Positions 20,862 to 31,247 are shown, counted from the first letter of the stretch. The stretch is 43,616 nt of DNA from Escherichia coli (GCF_003334305.1 NZ_QOWS01000029.1), one strand, 5' to 3'. Notes: generated from the letters alone by a model not told the origin. Made by a program: numbers and translations.

Positions 20862-21713
20862 ATGTATCACGACGTCAGCTATCTGCTCTCCCGCCTGATC
20901 AACGGCCCGCTGTCCCTGCGCCAGATTTACTTTGCCAGCAGTAACGGTCCGGCGCCCGATCTTGCGTATCAGGTCGATTTTCCACGGCTGGAAATAGTGC
21001 TGGAAGGTGAGTTTGTTGATACCGGCGCTGGAGCAACGTTAGTTCCCGGCGATGTGCTGTACGTTCCCGCTGGTGGCTGGAATTTTCCACAATGGCAAGC
21101 CCCCGCTACTACCTTTAGCGTGCTGTTTGGCAAACAGCAACTCGGCTTCAGCGTCGTGCAATGGGATGGCAAACAATATCAAAATCTGGCGAAGCAACAC
21201 GTCGCCCGGCGCGGCCCACGCATAGGTTCTTTTCTGCTACAAACGCTCAATGAAATGCAAATGCAGCCGCAGGAGCAGCAAACGGCAAGGCTTATCGTCG
21301 CCAGCCTGCTTAGCCACTGCCGCGATTTGCTCGGCAGCCAAATCCAGACCGCCTCACGCAGCCAGGCACTATTTGAAGCTATTCGCGATTATATCGACGA
21401 ACGCTATGCCTCCGCGCTTACCCGCGAATCTGTCGCACAGGCATTCTATATTTCACCAAACTATCTCTCGCACCTGTTTCAAAAAACGGGGGCCATTGGT
21501 TTTAACGAATACCTGAATCACACGCGACTGGAGCACGCTAAGACGTTATTGAAAGGCTATGACCTGAAGGTAAAAGAAGTGGCGCACGCCTGCGGCTTTG
21601 TCGACAGCAACTACTTCTGCCGTCTGTTTCGTAAAAACACCGAACGCTCGCCGTCGGAATATCGCCGGCAGTACCACAGCCAACTGACAGAAAAACCGAC
21701 TACTCCAGAATAA
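20862..21713 (+). CDS. yijO: AraC/XylS-family transcriptional regulator
   Basis: 283-aa ORF with C-terminal AraC-type HTH (…YLSHLFQKTGAIGFNEYLNHTRLEHAKTLL…VAHACGFVDSNYFCRLFRK). Confidence 0.8.
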   Translation: MYHDVSYLLSRLINGPLSLRQIYFASSNGPAPDLAYQVDFPRLEIVLEGEFVDTGAGATLVPGDVLYVPAGGWNFPQWQAPATTFSVLFGKQQLGFSVVQWDGKQYQNLAKQHVARRGPRIGSFLLQTLNEMQMQPQEQQTARLIVASLLSHCRDLLGSQIQTASRSQALFEAIRDYIDERYASALTRESVAQAFYISPNYLSHLFQKTGAIGFNEYLNHTRLEHAKTLLKGYDLKVKEVAHACGFVDSNYFCRLFRKNTERSPSEYRRQYHSQLTEKPTTPE

Positions 21714-22041
21714 GATGGGTTTGCTGCGGCGCAGAAAGCACTTTGCGCACCGCGCTCATTACCCGCTGCGGCTCACGCAGGAATGCGTAGATGCTGCATT
21801 GCACATAGCGGCAATGTTCAAATCGCTCGGCACCGGCAAGCTCGATATCCGTAATCAACAGAGCAACATCCGCCCGACGGATATCCTCGTCCGCTAAACG
21901 ATTCTCCGTTCCCAGCGCGCCCTGAGTTTCAATGCTGACGCCCCACTTCTCTAACTGGCACAACTTTTCCAGCCGTTCCGCCGCCATATAAGTATGCGCC
22001 ACGCCGCTTACGCAGGCGGTTACTGCCACCAGGTATGCCAT
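21700..22041 (-). CDS. frwD: PTS fructose-like IIB component
   Basis: 113-aa ORF MAYLVAVTACVSGVAHTYMAAERLE..., the IIB-Fru phospho-Cys motif (TAC..GVAHTYMAAE). Confidence 0.8.
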   Translation of the reverse strand: MAYLVAVTACVSGVAHTYMAAERLEKLCQLEKWGVSIETQGALGTENRLADEDIRRADVALLITDIELAGAERFEHCRYVQCSIYAFLREPQRVMSAVRKVLSAPQQTHLILE

Positions 22042-22042
22042 T

Positions 22043-22921
22043 TTAACCTCCCACGGTAACCTGAAATCCGGCCCGTTCTGCCATTTCGCGCATCGTTGTC
22101 ACATCGGCTGACGACGGCGCAGGCACCTCTTTCATCGACCATGTTTTCCCCAGCAGGCGGTATTTCGGTTCGCCGTACTGATGAAACGGTAACAGATGGA
22201 TCTGCCTGATTTTCAGCGGGATCAGTACATCCAGCGCCTGCTGCATATTCTCCCGGCTGAGCGTGAAACCAGGGATCAACGGTAAACGCGGGATCACGTT
22301 GACACCCTCACTCACCAGCAAACGCAGATTCTCCAGCACGCGTGGCAGGTTCATCTTCACCACATCCCGCGCCTGAGTCGCGTCCATAATTTTTAAATCG
22401 AACAGCACTTCATCGCACAATTTCGCCAGTGGTAATAGCTTGCTGGCTGGCGCGTCTCCGGCAGTTTCAATGGCGCATGACACGCCCCACAACCGCAGCC
22501 GCTGTAAAAAACGGGTAGCAAACTCCGCCTGCATTAACACTTCGCCGCCAGAAAGCGTGACGCCGCCGCCGGACGTGCGAAAGAAAATGTCATCTTTCAT
22601 CACTTCCCGTTCCAGCGCGTCAAGGCTGATATCGCGACCAATCCGTTCAAACGCACCGGAGGGGCATTCATCCGCATCACGCAAACATTTCGCACAGTGC
22701 AGACATTTCGCCTCTCTGCGTACTGTCTGGATTTTGCCGGAGATCGACTCCGGATTAGCACACCACGGGCAAAGATGCGGACAGCCTTTAAAAAAGACCA
22801 CCGTACGAATGCCCTCGCCGTCATTCAGTGAATAACGCTGAATGTTGAAAATGCGCGCCACATCATCGCGGCGCGTTTCCACAACGTTACAGCTGATGCG
22901 CTGTCCGGCGGATGATGTCAT
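22043..22921 (-). CDS. pflC: Glycyl-radical enzyme activating protein (radical SAM); start trimmed to MTSSAGQR
   Basis: CxxxCxxC-type radical-SAM cluster (CPHLCPWCANPE) plus additional Cys cluster; recognised as PflC. Confidence 0.85.
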   Translation of the reverse strand: MTSSAGQRISCNVVETRRDDVARIFNIQRYSLNDGEGIRTVVFFKGCPHLCPWCANPESISGKIQTVRREAKCLHCAKCLRDADECPSGAFERIGRDISLDALEREVMKDDIFFRTSGGGVTLSGGEVLMQAEFATRFLQRLRLWGVSCAIETAGDAPASKLLPLAKLCDEVLFDLKIMDATQARDVVKMNLPRVLENLRLLVSEGVNVIPRLPLIPGFTLSRENMQQALDVLIPLKIRQIHLLPFHQYGEPKYRLLGKTWSMKEVPAPSSADVTTMREMAERAGFQVTVGG

Positions 22922-25184
22922 CCTGGATCTCCTTCGACAGTTCGACAAAGAAGGCGCTGTATCCGGCAACGCGCACCACCAGCCCGGCATAATCTTGTGG
23001 GCGCTGTTGCGCTTCCCGCAACGTGTCGGCGTTCACCACGTTAAACTGAATATGTTGTAACTTAAGCTGGGTAAATGCCCGTAAGAAGTCGGCCAGTTTG
23101 CGTAATCCTGCTTCACCTTCCAGGGTCGCTGGAGTGAATTTCACGTTCAGCAACGTACCGTTAGACAGCAGCGTGTTATCGAGCTTACTGACTGACTTCA
23201 GTACCGCTGTTGGCCCTTGTGCGTCCTGGCCCAGCATGGGTGACAAGCCGCCGTCTGCCAGCTGTTCTCCGGCAAAACGACCGTCTGGCGTCGCTCCAAC
23301 CACCGATCCCAACGGGACGTGAGCAGAAACGGTATACGATCCCGGCGTGAAGTAGCCGCCGCGCGGGTTCTGGTATTTTTCCACTTCTTTGCAGTAGTGG
23401 CGTAACAGTTCGGCGCTGATGTTATCCACCTCGTCGATATCGTTACCGTATTTCTCGAAGCGGTTAATTAAGCGAGCACGGACTTTTTCGCCTTCTGGCG
23501 TTGCAAAGTTGGCTTTTAATACCGACAGCAATTCGTCAAAACTTAAACGCTGTTGCTCAAAAACCATCCCTTTCAACGCATGGAGAGAATCGCTCAGGTT
23601 GGCGATACCGATCCCCTGTACGCCGGAGAAGTTATAACGCGCGCCGCCATCGGTAATATCGCGGCCTTTTTCCAGACAATCGCTGATAAAAGACGAGAGC
23701 AGCGGTACAGGTGCCCAGTCGCGATGGCCGATATCACAAATATTGCTGCCCTCAACCATCAGGGTGATGTAGTGGCTGATCTTGGCGCGGATCTGCTCCA
23801 GTAAACCTTCATAAGTCAGCGCAGCATTGCCTTCATTTTCATACAGGCAGATTTCCATCACTTTCAGCAGATTAAACATCGCGATGTCATGCAAGCCGTA
23901 GGTTCTGCCGGGAATAGATAATTCCACACAGCCCACTACGGAATAGTCGCGCGCATCTTCCAGCGAAACGCCACGGTTGAGGAACGCTGGCACCACCACG
24001 TCATCGTTAAAGATTTGCGGAATACCGGTGCCGAGGCGAATGGTTTCGGCGGTTTTCATCAGGAACGGCGTGTCGATCAAGGCGTTAGTGCGCACGCCGA
24101 GGTTCGGTTGCGGTAATTGCACGCTTTGATAGGCGTCAAGGCAAAGGAACGAAAGCACGTTCACCGCGCTACGTCCGTTCTCGGTTAACCCGCCGAGCAG
24201 TGCGGTATAGCCGGTCGGGAAACCGGCGAAATAACGCGCGCTACTGGTGGAGCGCAACAGCACGATGTCGTTGCATTTCACCCATAAAGATTCGAGCAGT
24301 TCTTTCAGGAACGCCGCATCTTCGCCCTGGGTTAATGATGTCTGATAGAACGGCAACATATACTGGTCGAAGCGCCCCAACGATAGCGAACTGGCGTTGG
24401 ATTCGTATTGCAGAATGATGTTCATGTACCAGAATAACTGGCACGCCTGCCAGAACGTCTGCGGCTTATGTTGCGCGTTATGGCGGGAGATCTCCGCAAT
24501 AGTCAGCAGCTCTTCGCGACGCTGGGCATCTGTGCAGTTTGCCGCCATCGTTTCCGCCAGTTCGGCGTAACGCAAAATGTGTTTCTGCGAGGCTTCCAGC
24601 AGTAACAGCGCTGCCTGATAAAAGTGATTCTCCGGCTGTTGCTGACAATGTTGCTGCATCTGTGCCACCAGCTCCCCCAGCCCGTGATTCAACAGGCGTG
24701 GGTAATCAATAATAATGTGCCCCTGGCCTTTATCTGTCTGGTTGATGCTGAAAATCTGCGTGCTGGTCGCGGCTTTTACTTCATCTGTCATCTGCCCGTT
24801 GATGAAATCTTTCATCGAACGTTTTTCCCAGTACGGGAACAACTCTTCGCGGTAGATACGTTTATCTTCTTCGCTGATAGCAAAGCGGTCCTGCGGACGC
24901 GTCGGGAATTGATCCAGCTCTTTCAGCAGCCAGTAAGGGTCCATTTCCGGCGACATAATCCCGGCGCGCGGTTTTACGGTGCGGTTACCGGCAATCAGTT
25001 CTTCATCACGAATCGAAATTTCAACATGTTCAAGGATATACGCTGTTGCCTTCGCCCGGCGCAATATCACCGGTTCGCCTTCGGTTTGCCGATGGCTGGC
25101 GGTATAAAGCAGCGCCCGCTCCAGCGAGATTTCACGGGTATTGGAAAACAGTGCAGTTTTGAGGCGAGAGATACGATTCGTCAT
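22887..25184 (-). CDS. pflD: Formate acetyltransferase 2-like glycyl radical enzyme
   Basis: 765-aa ORF with C-terminal glycyl-radical motif (VVRVAGYSAFF) and active-site Cys region (GCVE). Confidence 0.9.
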   Translation of the reverse strand: MTNRISRLKTALFSNTREISLERALLYTASHRQTEGEPVILRRAKATAYILEHVEISIRDEELIAGNRTVKPRAGIMSPEMDPYWLLKELDQFPTRPQDRFAISEEDKRIYREELFPYWEKRSMKDFINGQMTDEVKAATSTQIFSINQTDKGQGHIIIDYPRLLNHGLGELVAQMQQHCQQQPENHFYQAALLLLEASQKHILRYAELAETMAANCTDAQRREELLTIAEISRHNAQHKPQTFWQACQLFWYMNIILQYESNASSLSLGRFDQYMLPFYQTSLTQGEDAAFLKELLESLWVKCNDIVLLRSTSSARYFAGFPTGYTALLGGLTENGRSAVNVLSFLCLDAYQSVQLPQPNLGVRTNALIDTPFLMKTAETIRLGTGIPQIFNDDVVVPAFLNRGVSLEDARDYSVVGCVELSIPGRTYGLHDIAMFNLLKVMEICLYENEGNAALTYEGLLEQIRAKISHYITLMVEGSNICDIGHRDWAPVPLLSSFISDCLEKGRDITDGGARYNFSGVQGIGIANLSDSLHALKGMVFEQQRLSFDELLSVLKANFATPEGEKVRARLINRFEKYGNDIDEVDNISAELLRHYCKEVEKYQNPRGGYFTPGSYTVSAHVPLGSVVGATPDGRFAGEQLADGGLSPMLGQDAQGPTAVLKSVSKLDNTLLSNGTLLNVKFTPATLEGEAGLRKLADFLRAFTQLKLQHIQFNVVNADTLREAQQRPQDYAGLVVRVAGYSAFFVELSKEIQDDIIRRTAHQL

Positions 25185-25234
25185 GAGGAACTCCTGTGGG
25201 AAAGCGAACCCGCCCTTGCGAGCGGGAGAAGAAC

Positions 25235-25555
25235 TTAAGCGGTTTGCGCCAGGTGAGCTTCAATTTTGCTCATAATGGCGTCAGCACGTTTTACCGCATC
25301 GCTGATGTTGACGCGCACGATGGTCTTGCCAGCAAAACGCTCTTCAAACTTGATGCCGATATCTTTGGTCAGAATCACCATATCGGCGCTCGCCACGTCT
25401 TCCGCAGTCAGTTCGTTTTCCAGACCAATTGACCCCTGAGTTTCTACTTTCACTTCCCAGCCTTTCGCTTTCGCGGCGCTTTCCAGCGCCTCTGCCGCCA
25501 TATAGGTATGGGCAACACCAGATGGACACGCGGTTACTGCAATAATTTTCGTCAT
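25235..25555 (-). CDS. frwB: PTS fructose-like IIB component
   Basis: 106-aa ORF MTKIIAVTACPSGVAHTYMAAEALE..., a paralogue of frwD. Confidence 0.85.
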   Translation of the reverse strand: MTKIIAVTACPSGVAHTYMAAEALESAAKAKGWEVKVETQGSIGLENELTAEDVASADMVILTKDIGIKFEERFAGKTIVRVNISDAVKRADAIMSKIEAHLAQTA

Positions 25556-25569
25556 GGCTCGTTCCTCAA

Positions 25570-26649
25570 TTAATTAATTTCAAAATCCAAATCCAGGTCG
25601 TCTTCCTTCTCATCAGTCGAAGACCCATTTTTACGCGCCAGACTTTTCAGCACGTTCACGCAAACAGCCGTCACCACTGCTCCGACAGCCACTGCTGCGA
25701 TATAACCCAGCTTGCCTTCAACCACCGGCAGCACAATCAGACCACCCCAGCCTGCATAGCACTGCGCACCGACCAGCGCCGCAGTTACCGCACCACAAAC
25801 AGAACCGACCATGATGGAAGGAATGACACGCAGCGGATCGGCAGCGGCGAAAGGAATCGCCCCTTCAGTAACCCCAACGCACCCCATCACCAGCGCCGCT
25901 TTGCCGGTTTCGCGCTCTTCTGCGGAGAAATTTTTACGACCAATCAGCGTCGCCAGCCCCATCCCCAGCGGCGGGATACAAATACCCACGGCAGCAATGG
26001 CCACCACGGTATAAACACCCTGAGCAACGCAAATCAGCATGAAGGCATAGGCCACTTTGTTAACCGGACCGCCCATATCGAACGCCAGCATCAGACCCAT
26101 GATCACCGCCAGCATAACAATGCTGCCCTGCTGCATCCCCTGAAGCCACTGAGTCAGGCTGTTGGTCAACGCCCCTACAGGCTCGCCCAAGCCCCACATC
26201 ATGATGCCTGCGGTAATCAGTGTGCCGACGATAGGAATAATGAAGATAGGCATCACCGAGCGCAGAACTTTATGCACCGGAATTTTCTTCAGGTAATGCA
26301 CCACGATGCCGCCGATAATCCCGGCGATCAGCGCACCAAAGAAGCCCGCACCAAAGCTGTTACCAACCCAGGCACCGATAGCGCACGGGGCCAGCGCAGA
26401 ACGCTCTGCAATGGAGTAACCGATGTAAGCGGCGAGGAAAGGCACCATCAGCGTCAAACCTGCAACGCCGATATCAAACAGTTTTTTCAGATTCGGATCG
26501 GCTACGGCATCCGGCACTGCGCCTTTGCCATACAACATGACGGAAACCGCCAGCAAAATACCGCCCGATACCACGAAGGGAATCATGTGTGAAACGCCCG
26601 TCATTAAATGCTGACGGGTATTTTTCAGGATCTGCACCAACTCATTCAT
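25570..26649 (-). CDS. frwC: PTS fructose-like IIC permease component
   Basis: 359-aa polytopic membrane protein with IIC-Fru-type motifs. Confidence 0.85.
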   Translation of the reverse strand: MNELVQILKNTRQHLMTGVSHMIPFVVSGGILLAVSVMLYGKGAVPDAVADPNLKKLFDIGVAGLTLMVPFLAAYIGYSIAERSALAPCAIGAWVGNSFGAGFFGALIAGIIGGIVVHYLKKIPVHKVLRSVMPIFIIPIVGTLITAGIMMWGLGEPVGALTNSLTQWLQGMQQGSIVMLAVIMGLMLAFDMGGPVNKVAYAFMLICVAQGVYTVVAIAAVGICIPPLGMGLATLIGRKNFSAEERETGKAALVMGCVGVTEGAIPFAAADPLRVIPSIMVGSVCGAVTAALVGAQCYAGWGGLIVLPVVEGKLGYIAAVAVGAVVTAVCVNVLKSLARKNGSSTDEKEDDLDLDFEIN

Positions 26650-26957
26650 AAGCTGCTCCCGGGCTTGCGAAAGCCCATGTCCATATTTTTGATGGAGGAA
26701 ACAATAGGCAATCGCAGGCGGAGCAAACAGTGGATAAAAAGGCCATTTACTGGACTTTTGTAATATCAGTACAAAAATGCGATCCGCCTCATAACTTGCG
26801 ATAATCCGGAAGCATGCCGCAAAACGGCGTCTTGTGAGACGCGTCGCAAATTGACGGTTACATTACATTTGTCCAGCTTTTGGCAGATTTGTCACATGGC
26901 AGGCCGTTGCCGTGCGCTCTTATCCTGTAAACAGAAAACCGTACCGGGAGAGAGGCA

Positions 26958-29459
26958 ATGGCCCTGATTGTGGAATTTATTTGTGAGCTACCTAACGGCG
27001 TACATGCACGTCCGGCAAGCCACGTTGAAACGCTGTGTAATACTTTTTCATCACAAATTGAGTGGCATAACCTGCGCACTGACCGCAAGGGCAACGCCAA
27101 AAGCGCCCTTGCGCTGATTGGCACCGATACGCTGGCGGGCGATAACTGCCAGTTACTGATTTCCGGGGCCGACGAACAGGAAGCGCACCAGCGTTTAAGC
27201 CAATGGCTGCGCGATGAATTCCCCCACTGCGATGCGCCGCTGGCGGAAGTTAAATCTGACGAACTGGAACCACTGCCGGTTTCACTGACCAATCTGAATC
27301 CGCAAATTATCCGCGCCCGCACCGTGTGCAGCGGTAGTGCAGGCGGCATTCTGACGCCGATCTCTTCTTTAGATCTCAATGCGCTGGGTAATCTTCCCGC
27401 AGCCAAAAGCGTTGACGCCGAGCAATCCGCACTGGAAAACGGCCTGACGCTGGTACTGAAAAACATTGAGTTTCGTCTGCTGGATAGCGACGGTGCCACC
27501 AGCGCGATTCTGGAAGCGCACCGATCCCTGGCTGGCGATACTTCCCTGCGCGAACATTTACTGGCAGGCGTCAGCGCCGGATTAAGCTGCGCCGAAGCGA
27601 TTGTCACCAGTGCGAATCACTTTTGCGAAGAGTTCGCCCGTTCCAGCAGCAGCTACCTGCAAGAACGTGCCCTGGACGTACGCGACGTCTGCTTCCAGTT
27701 ACTCCAGCAAATCTACGGTGAGCAACGCTTCCCGGCACCGGGCAAACTGACGCAGCCCGCCATTTGTATGGCTGATGAACTGACTCCCAGCCAGTTCCTC
27801 GAACTGGATAAAAATCACCTCAAAGGTCTGTTACTGAAAAGTGGCGGCACCACCTCACATACCGTAATTCTTGCCCGTTCGTTCAACATTCCGACACTGG
27901 TTGGTGTAGATATTGATGCCCTTACTCCGTGGCAGCATCAAACGATTTATATCGACGGCAACGCTGGGGCGATTGTGGTTGAGCCAGGAGAAGCCGTAGC
28001 TCGTTATTATCAGCAAGAAGCCCGCGTACAGGACGCCCTGCGTGAGCAACAGCGTGTCTGGCTGACCCAACAAGCCCGTACCGCTGACGGTATCCGCATT
28101 GAAATTGCCGCTAACATCGCTCACTCCGTGGAAGCGCAGGCCGCATTCGGCAATGGTGCGGAAGGCGTTGGTTTGTTCCGCACTGAAATGCTCTATATGG
28201 ATCGCACCAGTGCACCGGGCGAAAGCGAGCTGTACAACATTTTTTGTCAGGCGCTGGAGTCTGCCAACGGACGCAGCATTATTGTGCGCACTATGGACAT
28301 TGGCGGCGACAAACCCGTTGATTATCTGAACATTCCGGCAGAAGCTAACCCGTTCCTCGGTTATCGCGCTGTGCGTATTTATGAAGAATACGCCTCGCTG
28401 TTCACCACACAACTACGGTCGATCCTGCGCGCCTCCGCTCACGGCAGCCTGAAAATCATGATCCCGATGATCTCCTCAATGGAAGAGATCTTATGGGTGA
28501 AAGAAAAACTGGCGGAAGCCAAACAGCAACTGCGTAACGAACACATTCCGTTTGATGAGAAGATCCAGCTTGGCATTATGCTGGAAGTACCGTCGGTGAT
28601 GTTCATCATCGATCAATGCTGCGAAGAGATTGATTTCTTTAGTATTGGTAGTAATGACCTGACGCAATATCTGCTGGCAGTGGATCGCGATAACGCTAAG
28701 GTTACTCGTCACTACAACAGCCTGAATCCGGCATTCTTGCGGGCGCTCGATTACGCCGTGCAGGCGGTGCATCGCCAGGGCAAATGGATTGGTCTGTGCG
28801 GTGAGCTGGGAGCGAAAGGTTCCGTGCTGCCGTTGCTGGTCGGCTTAGGGCTGGATGAACTCAGCATGAGCGCACCATCAATTCCGGCGGCGAAAGCGCG
28901 GATGGCGCAACTTGATAGCCGTGAGTGCCGCAAGTTGCTCAACCAAGCAATGGCCTGCCGTACTTCGCTGGAAGTGGAACACCTGCTGGCGCAATTCCGC
29001 ATGACCCAACAGGACGCACCGCTGGTCACCGCCGAGTGCATCACGCTGGAAAGTGACTGGCGCAGCAAAGAAGAAGTGCTCAAAGGCATGACCGATAACC
29101 TGCTGCTGGCGGGCCGCTGCCGCTATCCGCGTAAACTGGAAGCCGACTTATGGGCGCGCGAGGCCGTTTTCTCTACCGGTCTGGGCTTTAGTTTTGCCAT
29201 TCCACACAGCAAATCAGAACACATTGAGCAATCCACCATCAGCGTGGCGCGTCTGCAAGCGCCGGTGCGCTGGGGCGATGATGAAGCGCAATTCATCATT
29301 ATGTTAACCCTGAACAAACACGCTGCGGGCGATCAGCACATGCGCATTTTCTCGCGCCTCGCTCGCCGCATCATGCACGAAGAATTCCGTAACGCGCTGG
29401 TTAACGCCGCCTCTGCCGACGCTATCGCCAGCCTGCTGCAACATGAACTGGAACTGTAA
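26958..29459 (+). CDS. ptsA: Multidomain PTS protein (HPr-like + Enzyme I-like + IIA-like)
   Basis: 833-aa ORF: N-terminal HPr-like His motif (GVHARPASH), central Enzyme I/PEP-utilising domains ([13 protein letters not shown], ...IGSNDLTQY...), C-terminal IIA-like region (FAIPHSK). Confidence 0.9.
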
Positions 29460-29470
29460 AAGGAAACATC

Positions 29471-30133
29471 ATGGAACTGTATCTGGACACCGCTAACGTC
29501 GCAGAAGTCGAACGTCTGGCACGCATATTCCCGATTGCCGGGGTGACAACTAACCCGAGCATTATCGCTGCCAGCAAGGAGTCCATCTGGGAAGTGCTGC
29601 CGCGTCTGCAAAAAGCGATTGGTGATGAGGGCATTCTGTTTGCTCAGACCATGAGCCGCGACGCGCAGGGGATGGTGGAAGAAGCGAAGCGTCTGCGCGA
29701 CGCCATTCCGGGCATTGTGGTGAAAATCCCGGTGACTTCCGAAGGTCTGGCAGCAATTAAAATACTGAAAAAAGAGGGTATTACTACGCTTGGCACCGCA
29801 GTGTACAGTGCTGCACAAGGGTTACTGGCCGCGCTGGCAGGGGCAAAATACGTTGCTCCGTATGTTAACCGCGTAGATGCCCAGGGCGGGGACGGCATTC
29901 GTACGGTTCAGGAGCTGCAAGCGCTGTTAGAAATGCACGCACCAGAAAGCATGGTGCTGGCGGCCAGCTTTAAAACGCCGCGTCAGGCGCTGGACTGTTT
30001 ACTGGCAGGATGTGAATCCATCACCCTGCCCTTAGATGTAGCGCAACAAATGCTCAACACCCCTGCGGTAGAGTCAGCTATAGAGAAGTTCGAACACGAC
30101 TGGAATGCCGCATTTGGCACTACTCATCTCTAA
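29471..30133 (+). CDS. fsaB: Fructose-6-phosphate aldolase 2
   Basis: 220-aa transaldolase-like [19 protein letters not shown]...GVTTNPSII with Schiff-base Lys context (VVKIPVT). Confidence 0.9.
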
Positions 30134-30143
30134 AGGAGCAATT

Positions 30144-31247
30144 ATGGACCGCATTATTCAATCACCGGGTAAATACATCCAGGGCGCTGATGTGATTAAT
30201 CGTCTGGGCGAATACCTGAAGCCGCTGGCAGAACGCTGGTTAGTGGTGGGTGACAAATTTGTTTTAGGTTTTGCTCAATCCACTGTCGAGAAAAGCTTTA
30301 AAGATGCTGGACTGGTAGTAGAAATTGCGCCGTTTGGCGGTGAATGTTCGCAAAATGAGATCGACCGTCTGCGTGGCATCGCGGAGACTGCGCAGTGTGG
30401 CGCAATTCTCGGTATCGGTGGCGGAAAAACCCTCGATACTGCCAAAGCACTGGCACATTTCATGGGTGTTCCGGTAGCGATCGCACCGACTATCGCCTCT
30501 ACCGATGCACCGTGCAGCGCATTGTCTGTTATCTACACCGATGAGGGTGAGTTTGACCGCTATCTGCTGTTGCCAAATAACCCGAATATGGTCATTGTCG
30601 ACACCAAAATCGTCGCGGGCGCACCTGCACGTCTGTTAGCAGCGGGTATCGGCGATGCGCTGGCAACCTGGTTTGAAGCGCGTGCTTGCTCTCGTAGCGG
30701 CGCGACCACCATGGCGGGCGGCAAGTGCACCCAGGCGGCGCTGGCACTGGCTGAACTGTGCTACAACACCCTGCTGGAAGAAGGCGAAAAAGCGATGCTT
30801 GCCGCCGAACAGCATGTAGTAACCCCGGCGCTGGAGCGCGTGATTGAAGCGAACACCTATTTGAGCGGCGTTGGTTTTGAAAGCGGCGGGCTGGCGGCGG
30901 CTCACGCGGTGCATAACGGCCTGACCGCTATCCCGGACGCGCATCACTATTATCACGGTGAAAAAGTGGCATTTGGTACGCTGACGCAGCTGGTTCTGGA
31001 AAACGCACCGGTTGAGGAAATCGAAACCGTAGCTGCACTTAGCCATGCGGTAGGTTTGCCAATAACTCTCGCTCAACTGGATATTAAAGAAGATGTCCCG
31101 GCGAAAATGCGAATTGTGGCAGAAGCGGCATGTGCAGAAGGTGAAACCATTCACAACATGCCTGGCGGCGCGACGCCAGATCAGGTTTACGCCGCTCTGC
31201 TGGTAGCCGACCAGTACGGTCAGCGTTTCCTGCAAGAGTGGGAATAA
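30144..31247 (+). CDS. gldA: Glycerol dehydrogenase; start trimmed to [11 protein letters not shown] (367 aa)
   Basis: Iron-containing alcohol dehydrogenase family motifs ([13 protein letters not shown]); recognised as GldA. Confidence 0.9.

Follow-up and report, generated by a model that had tools for sequence, protein, structure and literature searches.

The frw-pfl-ptsA cluster of Escherichia coli as a probable core-genome locus of anaerobic 1,5-anhydromannitol catabolism, with a candidate regulatory model involving YijO

We analysed a stretch of 43,616 nucleotides of Escherichia coli DNA (NZ_QOWS01000029.1; hereafter the window), focusing on a 9.5-kb cluster at 21700–31247 that encodes a phosphotransferase system (PTS) of the fructose family, a glycyl radical enzyme with its activase, an aldolase, and a dehydrogenase (Table 1). 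The gene coordinates were taken from a mechanical list of open reading frames (ORFs) and from the RefSeq annotation of an identical stretch. Both sources concur with a first-pass annotation of this DNA in that all eight ORFs of the cluster are full length, and the length that it gave for the divergent control region is exact. The adjoining gene yijO was absent from its gene list. The cluster is the same locus as gldA-fsaB-ptsA/frwC-frwB-pflD-pflC-frwD-yijO (b3945–b3954) of K-12 MG1655, with which it shares the gene order, the lengths of all the genes, and the 308-bp spacer length. None of the eight genes contains an internal stop, each protein differs from its K-12 counterpart by 0–5 residues (FrwB, FrwC, and GldA are identical, and FrwD is one residue off), and the spacer carries two base substitutions. 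There is no functional difference between the K-12 locus and this cluster.

Table 1. Genes of the cluster and features of its divergent control region, with positions in the window.
Feature	Position	Strand	Description and basis
yijO	20862-21713	+	283 aa AraC-family transcription factor; RefSeq annotation, Pfam
frwD	21700-22041	-	113 aa, second PTS fructose-family IIB
pflC	22043-22921	-	292 aa radical S-adenosylmethionine (SAM) activase; mechanical ORF extends to 22990
pflD	22887-25184	-	765 aa glycyl radical enzyme
frwB	25235-25555	-	106 aa PTS IIB
frwC	25570-26649	-	359 aa PTS fructose-family IIC permease
Divergent control region	26650-26957	none	308 bp between frwC and ptsA
Predicted frwC -10 hexamer TATTGT	26701-26706	-	inside conserved block AACAATAGGCAAT; 24-sequence alignment
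frwC-side box pair	26730-26764	-	ATTACAAAAGTCCAG-N14-ATCCAC; cross-genus alignment, pattern scan
CRP-like site D	26778-26793	none	TGCGATCCGCCTCATA, 2 mismatches; ~-91.5 from predicted frwC start
CRP-like site E	26833-26848	none	TGTGAGACGCGTCGCA, 1 mismatch; ~-92.5 from predicted ptsA start
ptsA-side box pair	26862-26896	+	ATTACATTTGTCCAG-N14-GTCACA; cross-genus alignment, pattern scan
Predicted ptsA -10 hexamer TATCCT	26921-26926	+	partly conserved as TAT(C/G/T)CT
ptsA (frwA)	26958-29459	+	833 aa multiphosphoryl-transfer protein
fsaB	29471-30133	+	220 aa fructose-6-phosphate aldolase 2
gldA	30144-31247	+	367 aa glycerol / L-1,2-propanediol dehydrogenase; ORF start 30105

Within each unit, only 1–50 bp separate neighbouring genes, apart from a 35-bp overlap between pflD and pflC; it is therefore reasonable to read frwCB-pflDC-frwD and ptsA-fsaB-gldA as two divergent operons. 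The genes yijO and frwD are convergent, with a 14-bp overlap of their coding ends, and they are listed together in PMC12288877 as a candidate for a convergent 'excludon'. Transcripts reading through from the frw operon would be antisense to yijO, the cluster's own putative regulator.

All eight cluster proteins scored above the NCBIfam equivalog or subfamily cut-offs, and all the catalytic and phospho-acceptor residues examined are present. The three domains that had been ascribed to PtsA were found by Pfam in the order HPr (PTS-HPr, residues 7–84), Enzyme I (PEP-utilisers_N, the mobile domain, and the PEP-binding domain over residues 123–653), and EIIA (PTS_EIIA_2, residues 690–829). His16, His301, and His750 of PtsA lie in canonical phospho-acceptor motifs, and its score against TIGR01417 is 480 bits (cut-off 341.7). 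FrwC (720 bits against NF007787, cut-off 426) is accompanied by FrwB (210 bits against NF007783, cut-off 135), which has the phospho-accepting Cys10, and by FrwD (225 bits against NF007747, cut-off 153), in which Cys10 lies in TAC10VSG. FsaB scored 383 against NF009296 (cut-off 306) and 353 against TIGR00875 (cut-off 246) and possesses the Schiff-base residue Lys85 within VVK85IP, and GldA scored 752.6 bits against NF047954 (cut-off 700). In PflC (629 bits against NF007483, cut-off 326; 262 against TIGR02494, cut-off 174), the CX3CX2C motif for the [4Fe-4S] cluster and SAM is located at residues 47–54 (Cys47, Cys51, and Cys54).

PflD (1723 bits against NF007437, cut-off 1109) aligns over residues 1–765 with PDB entry 8yjo, 'Probable dehydratase PflD', which is a crystal structure of full-length E. 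coli PflD (1730 bits, five substitutions). The variants L384 and Y448 are probably ancestral, because both match the more distant homolog 8id0. The paralog YbiW (8yjn/8id7) was matched with E ~1e-143. PflD exhibits full-length homology to the glycyl radical dehydratases, namely B12-independent glycerol dehydratase (1r8w), propanediol dehydratase (5i2a), and hydroxyproline dehydratase (6vxc), with E values from 5e-194 (1r8w) to 1e-123, whereas the match to pyruvate formate-lyase (1h16, E=1e-33) covers residues 247–763 only. A G-C-x-E loop, an RVxG loop, and a dedicated radical-SAM activase are common to these dehydratases and the PflD system. In PflD, the catalytic loop is G-C-V-E at residues 418–421, with a single Cys419 followed by Glu421, and the glycyl radical loop is RVAGY at residues 738–742, which places the radical at Gly741. 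Pyruvate formate-lyase has a Cys-Cys pair where eliminases have a single cysteine.

The cluster and the chemistry of PflD are already known, having been solved in 2024. According to section 5.1 of a 2025 review (PMC12441222), Ma et al. (JACS 2024, 146:26187–26197, doi 10.1021/jacs.4c07718) identified pathways by which gut bacteria metabolize 1,5-anhydroglucitol and 1,5-anhydromannitol anaerobically, both of which begin with PTS phosphorylation of the polyol to the 6-phosphate. In that account, E. coli PflD converts 1,5-anhydromannitol-6-phosphate into 1-deoxyfructose-6-phosphate, and YbiW converts 1,5-anhydroglucitol-6-phosphate into the same product; the cleavage proceeds by an oxygen-sensitive glycyl radical mechanism and is strictly anaerobic (PMC12441222). 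By orthology to the published enzyme, PflD in the window is assigned as a 1,5-anhydromannitol-6-phosphate ring-opening lyase. The statement in the first-pass annotation that neither the PTS nor PflD had a resolved substrate is thus outdated, and the label 'cryptic' no longer applies, while it was right in kind to suggest an anaerobic pathway for a sugar or sugar alcohol. It had also named two things that would tell against it, a specific substrate in the literature and dispensability of the cluster under all tested conditions. The first has been published, and the second does not hold; on growth, the same section of the review states only that these routes make it possible for E. coli and numerous gut bacteria to grow on 1,5-anhydroglucitol (PMC12441222). 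No other functional description of PflD, YbiW, frwC, fsaB, or YijO was found in the literature searched.

For the steps after ring opening, it is long known that fructose-6-phosphate aldolase takes hydroxyacetone as a donor and that GldA reduces hydroxyacetone. FsaA or FsaB reportedly splits 1-deoxyfructose-6-phosphate into glyceraldehyde-3-phosphate and hydroxyacetone, the latter is said to be reduced by GldA to 1,2-propanediol, and E. coli is likewise said to grow anaerobically on both anhydro-polyols.

The locus is part of the ordinary genetic equipment of the species. Every one of the 5426 complete E. coli genomes gave a match to the 9.5-kb stretch, at least 80% of which is covered at a single place in 5394 of them. 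An evenly stepped sample down the ranking, including O157:H7 and Nissle 1917, was colinear throughout, with 100% coverage and 96.6–100% identity. A megablast search showed positions 21700–31247 to be 100% identical to at least 14 complete genomes, with 100% matches on E. coli chromosomes annotated as frwD-pflC-pflD-frwB-frwC / ptsA-fsa-gldA, and over its full length the window shares 99.8% identity with strain RM7190. The cluster had been described as fully intact in this strain, which is true but not distinctive: it is an ordinary E. coli core-genome locus with nothing peculiar to the strain. Intactness as a strain peculiarity was thus rejected on the grounds of the coverage in 5394 of the 5426 genomes and the uniform colinearity of the sample.

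The linkage of the genes extends far beyond the species. A PflD scan with one genome per species yielded 80 loci from Escherichia, Citrobacter, Enterobacter, Klebsiella, Yersinia, Hafnia, Rahnella, Serratia, Edwardsiella, Gilliamella, Zophobihabitans, Necropsobacter, and Vibrio, against which the proteins of the window were run by tblastn. The genes ptsA, frwC, frwB, pflD, and pflC are neighbours in about 70 of these loci, a span that reaches from Escherichia to Vibrio; 63 of the 80 have a linked fsaB, and linkage of gldA is found mainly in Enterobacteriaceae. A yijO ortholog adjoins pflDC in nearly all of the 80 loci, including the rearranged ones of Gilliamella, Necropsobacter, and Vibrio and those which lack the PTS. 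In the latter, which belong to Kluyvera and relatives (L034, L035, L042, and L050) and to Edwardsiella piscicida (L079), pflD and pflC stand with an AraC-family gene and have no linked frw PTS, ptsA, fsaB, or gldA; there the substrate has to come in by a different route. A second gene for a glycyl radical enzyme, distant from PflD (~35% identity), was seen a few kb past gldA in Pluralibacter, Phytobacter, and one Citrobacter (L020 478–2835, L024 400–2757, and L076 422–2779).

Taken with the published chemistry, these results make it very probable that the cluster is the E. coli core-genome locus for anaerobic 1,5-anhydro-D-mannitol catabolism ('anhydroglycolysis', Ma et al. 2024). In this pathway, a PTS takes up the polyol and phosphorylates it to 1,5-anhydromannitol-6-phosphate. 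The phosphoryl group would most probably pass from PtsA (Enzyme I, HPr, and IIA) through FrwB and/or FrwD (IIB) to FrwC (IIC), because the domains fit such a relay and its linkage is conserved; the relay would then most probably be the pathway's own self-contained PTS for anhydromannitol. From family knowledge and the motifs, PflC would set the glycyl radical on Gly741 of PflD. In the step that follows, which is published, a thiyl radical at Cys419 drives a dehydratase-type elimination in which the ring oxygen is the leaving group, so that the pyranose ether opens to give 1-deoxyfructose-6-phosphate. PflD differs in this respect from the glycyl radical dehydratases compared above: what leaves is an ether oxygen within the substrate molecule itself, the ring therefore opens without release of water, and the substrate is a PTS-delivered sugar phosphate. 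FsaB would subsequently carry out a retro-aldol cleavage to glyceraldehyde-3-phosphate and hydroxyacetone, and GldA would reduce the latter to 1,2-propanediol, as the known activities of both enzymes allow and as is reportedly the case. Finally, comparative footprinting suggests that YijO and CRP may activate both divergent operons.

A close relative of this pathway is the 1,5-anhydroglucitol-6-phosphate branch, YbiW-YbiY-FsaA, in which a paralogous glycyl radical enzyme acts on the C2 epimer and gives the same product (PMC12441222). Its locus lies elsewhere on the chromosome, outside the window. The branch presumably also has an activase and a paralogous fructose-6-phosphate aldolase, and we take the K-12 YbiW cluster to be without a dedicated PTS or an Enzyme I-HPr-IIA protein.

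The divergent control region was compared across the loci. The spacer is 301–316 bp long in 48 of the 68 divergently arranged loci, with nearly all Enterobacteriaceae among them, and reaches 516 bp in Vibrio. An alignment of 24 spacers across genera and species revealed discrete conserved blocks in otherwise diverged DNA, the two largest of which are inverted copies of each other. Each of the two contains a direct repeat with the consensus ATTACA-n3-GTCCAG-N14-RTCMAC, whose half-sites are 20 bp apart and in which GTCCAG occupies 26871–26876 on the ptsA side and 26750–26755 on the frwC side, and the promoter-proximal half-site stops 23–24 bp before the predicted -10 hexamer, leaving room only for a poor -35 element. 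If transcription is assumed to start about 7 nt past each -10, near 26933 (+ strand) and 26694 (- strand), the boxes extend from about -71 to -37, and the CRP-like sites are centred at about -92. Site D is conserved as AAATG(C/A)GATC-n4-TCAAA from Escherichia to Gilliamella, and site E becomes a perfect TGTGA-N6-TCACA at the equivalent place in Gilliamella and Zophobihabitans. A scan for TGTGA-N6-TCACA gave one site with one mismatch and two with two mismatches in the spacer, compared with 11 such sites in the whole window, the positions relative to the starts being predictions.

The 33-bp box pattern, with up to two mismatches, had 94 matches in 1.65 Mb of loci, all of them within the ptsA-frwC spacer and usually one per strand. 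In the window it had two matches against 0.06 expected, a comparison that is circular since the pattern was derived from this sequence. More informative are the distant taxa: in Vibrio, Gilliamella, Necropsobacter, and Zophobihabitans, whose spacers are otherwise unalignable, outward-facing wwwRTCCAGT boxes display the same arrangement. The frwC-type box and promoter are also kept about 100–116 bp upstream of pflD (locus position 10001) in the Kluyvera-type loci and in E. piscicida, the predicted frwC -10 hexamer being retained in the latter as well. Extra, weaker copies of the GTCCAG box (four mismatches) were seen beside the yijO-like gene in Klebsiella spallanzanii (L045 14465–14497), in an Enterobacterales metagenome-assembled genome (L058 15495–15527), and in Vibrio variabilis (L080 16171–16203). 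They hint at autoregulation or a further target, and chance matches also arise at that stringency.

No consensus sigma-70 promoter and no intrinsic terminator scored above the shuffle background in the spacer, after gldA, or upstream of yijO; for the spacer, the absence of a consensus promoter is expected if the promoters are activator-dependent. A generic repeat search of the spacer yielded nothing beyond short matches in two copies; the box pairs escaped it and came to light only in the cross-genus alignment. Rfam at the gathering threshold found no RNA family within the cluster.

The boxes are probably bound by YijO, the product of the adjacent AraC-family gene. Pfam recognizes only the C-terminal part of this protein, which has the double helix-turn-helix of the AraC type (HTH_18 at residues 192–270, E=4.5e-21, and HTH_AraC at residues 233–269), and the protein falls below every NCBIfam equivalog cut-off. 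Its function was not found in the literature searched, where it is listed among transcription factors of unknown function. Because its linkage to pflDC is conserved, YijO is a candidate for the dedicated regulator of the cluster. The spacer would thus comprise two mirror-image activator-dependent promoters, each with direct-repeat boxes abutting a weak -35 and a CRP-like site near -92.

This layout resembles that of araBAD, where the AraC half-sites I1 and I2 abut the -35 element and CRP binds near -93, and the likeness is our reason for proposing that YijO and CRP control both promoters. Common to both are a pair of direct-repeat boxes separated by about two helical turns and ending at a weak -35, a CRP-like site some 92 bp before the start (here a predicted one), and a neighbouring AraC-family gene. 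Unlike araBAD, the predicted module is duplicated in mirror image for two divergent operons. In addition, yijO is located at the distal end of one operon, with which it is convergent, whereas araC is divergently transcribed from araBAD. In its full form, our model holds that YijO is an activator responsive to anhydromannitol or anhydromannitol-6-phosphate which acts on the two mirror-image operators of Table 1, together with CRP at a site some 92 bp upstream of each start, and so fires both operons, with Frw/PtsA serving as a private anhydromannitol PTS. We give this complete model about an even chance of being correct. The comparative footprint provides a concrete regulatory model for a transcription factor without an assigned function, and the model could be used for anhydromannitol-responsive reporters or for tuning the pathway toward 1,2-propanediol. 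It is the only modestly new element here, and Ma et al. 2024 may already treat regulation or transport.

Several points weigh against the pathway and its control as drawn above. The Frw PTS is assigned to anhydromannitol from gene context only, and the second IIB, FrwD, has no explained role in the proposed relay; the transporter assignment and the role of FrwD are both inferential. The promoters, starts, YijO boxes, and CRP sites are predictions, and the box pattern was taken from this same sequence. No FNR-type site (TTGAT-N4-ATCAA, up to two mismatches) was found in 26650–26957, although the pathway is strictly anaerobic, and direct FNR control is therefore without sequence support. The name of PflD in NCBIfam (June 2026) is still 'formate C-acetyltransferase'. 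Furthermore, the reactions of FsaB and GldA and the growth on anhydromannitol are given here as Ma et al. reportedly describe them and from secondary citation.

The best surviving alternative accepts the published chemistry and regards anhydromannitol as a proxy: the cargo or inducer of Frw would be 1,5-anhydrofructose or another anhydro- or deoxy-hexitol, and anhydromannitol would enter via another PTS. None of our results identifies the permease for anhydromannitol, FrwD is without an assigned role, and pflDC and the regulator persist in the absence of a linked PTS in E. piscicida and the Kluyvera-type loci, all of which would suit such a division of labour. However, the PTS genes are, on our reading, co-transcribed with pflDC and are adjacent to them from Escherichia to Vibrio, and the same box pair stands at both the operon of the PTS and glycyl radical enzyme and the ptsA-fsaB operon. 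The shared linkage and the shared box pair therefore argue for a single substrate-specific module, and we regard the proxy explanation as improbable.

Still less probable is that the cluster is truly cryptic, a PTS and a glycyl radical enzyme for which there is no known substrate. K-12 RefSeq labels every component 'putative', the legacy name persists in NCBIfam, and most of the literature searched is silent on function, but the substrate was assigned by Ma et al. 2024 (PMC12441222, section 5.1), and a contemporaneous crystal structure of PflD is in the PDB. The legacy annotation, which takes Frw for a fructose PTS and PflD for a second pyruvate (or 2-ketoacid) formate-lyase, is hardly credible. 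In its favour are two product names, 'formate C-acetyltransferase' and 'PTS fructose transporter subunit EIIC', and the fact that FrwC, FrwB, and the EIIA module belong by sequence to the fructose PTS family, but the match of PflD to a true pyruvate formate-lyase is weak and partial while that to dehydratases is full length, its one catalytic cysteine followed by glutamate is eliminase-like, the PDB depositors call it a dehydratase, and the genes conserved beside it code for an aldolase and a hydroxyacetone reductase and not for enzymes of acetyl-CoA or formate. PflD as a pyruvate formate-lyase was ruled out by the homology and the active-site motif. The anhydromannitol pathway is thus the reading that we retain. 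Annotation lags behind it: NCBIfam release 20 (June 2026) and RefSeq have PtsA as 'ptsP', PflD as a 'formate C-acetyltransferase', and PflC as the enzyme that activates it. Owing to such names ('formate acetyltransferase', 'fructose-like' PTS), readers who work from sequence keep rediscovering the cluster as unknown.

The cluster is embedded in the gene order murI, btuB, trmA, fabR, sthA, oxyR, argHBC/E, ppc, eptC, and yijO on one side and yijF, yijE, katG, metF, metLB, metJ, yiiX, IS1, and rhs on the other. A gene for a transporter of the major facilitator superfamily and manD (D-mannonate dehydratase) are inserted at 8138–10702 (- strand) between oxyR/OxyS and argH. In contrast to the cluster, this two-gene insert is accessory, being present in 1872 of the 5426 complete E. 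coli genomes, and K-12 is presumably without it. In yiiX (41162–41770, + strand), a 1-bp deletion near 41556 relative to RM7190 causes a frameshift and leaves an ORF of 149 aa instead of 202 aa, which may reflect either a genuine pseudogene or a mistake in the assembly. An IS1-family element, frameshifted according to a near-identical record, and then RHS fragments (dsORF-f3 and the end of rhsC) occupy 41915–43616 at the window edge. Rfam also identified two ordinary elements, the OxyS small RNA at 7982–8091 (+ strand, 139.5 bits), which adjoins oxyR, and a cobalamin riboswitch at 2803–2992 (- strand, 86.8 bits) upstream of btuB.

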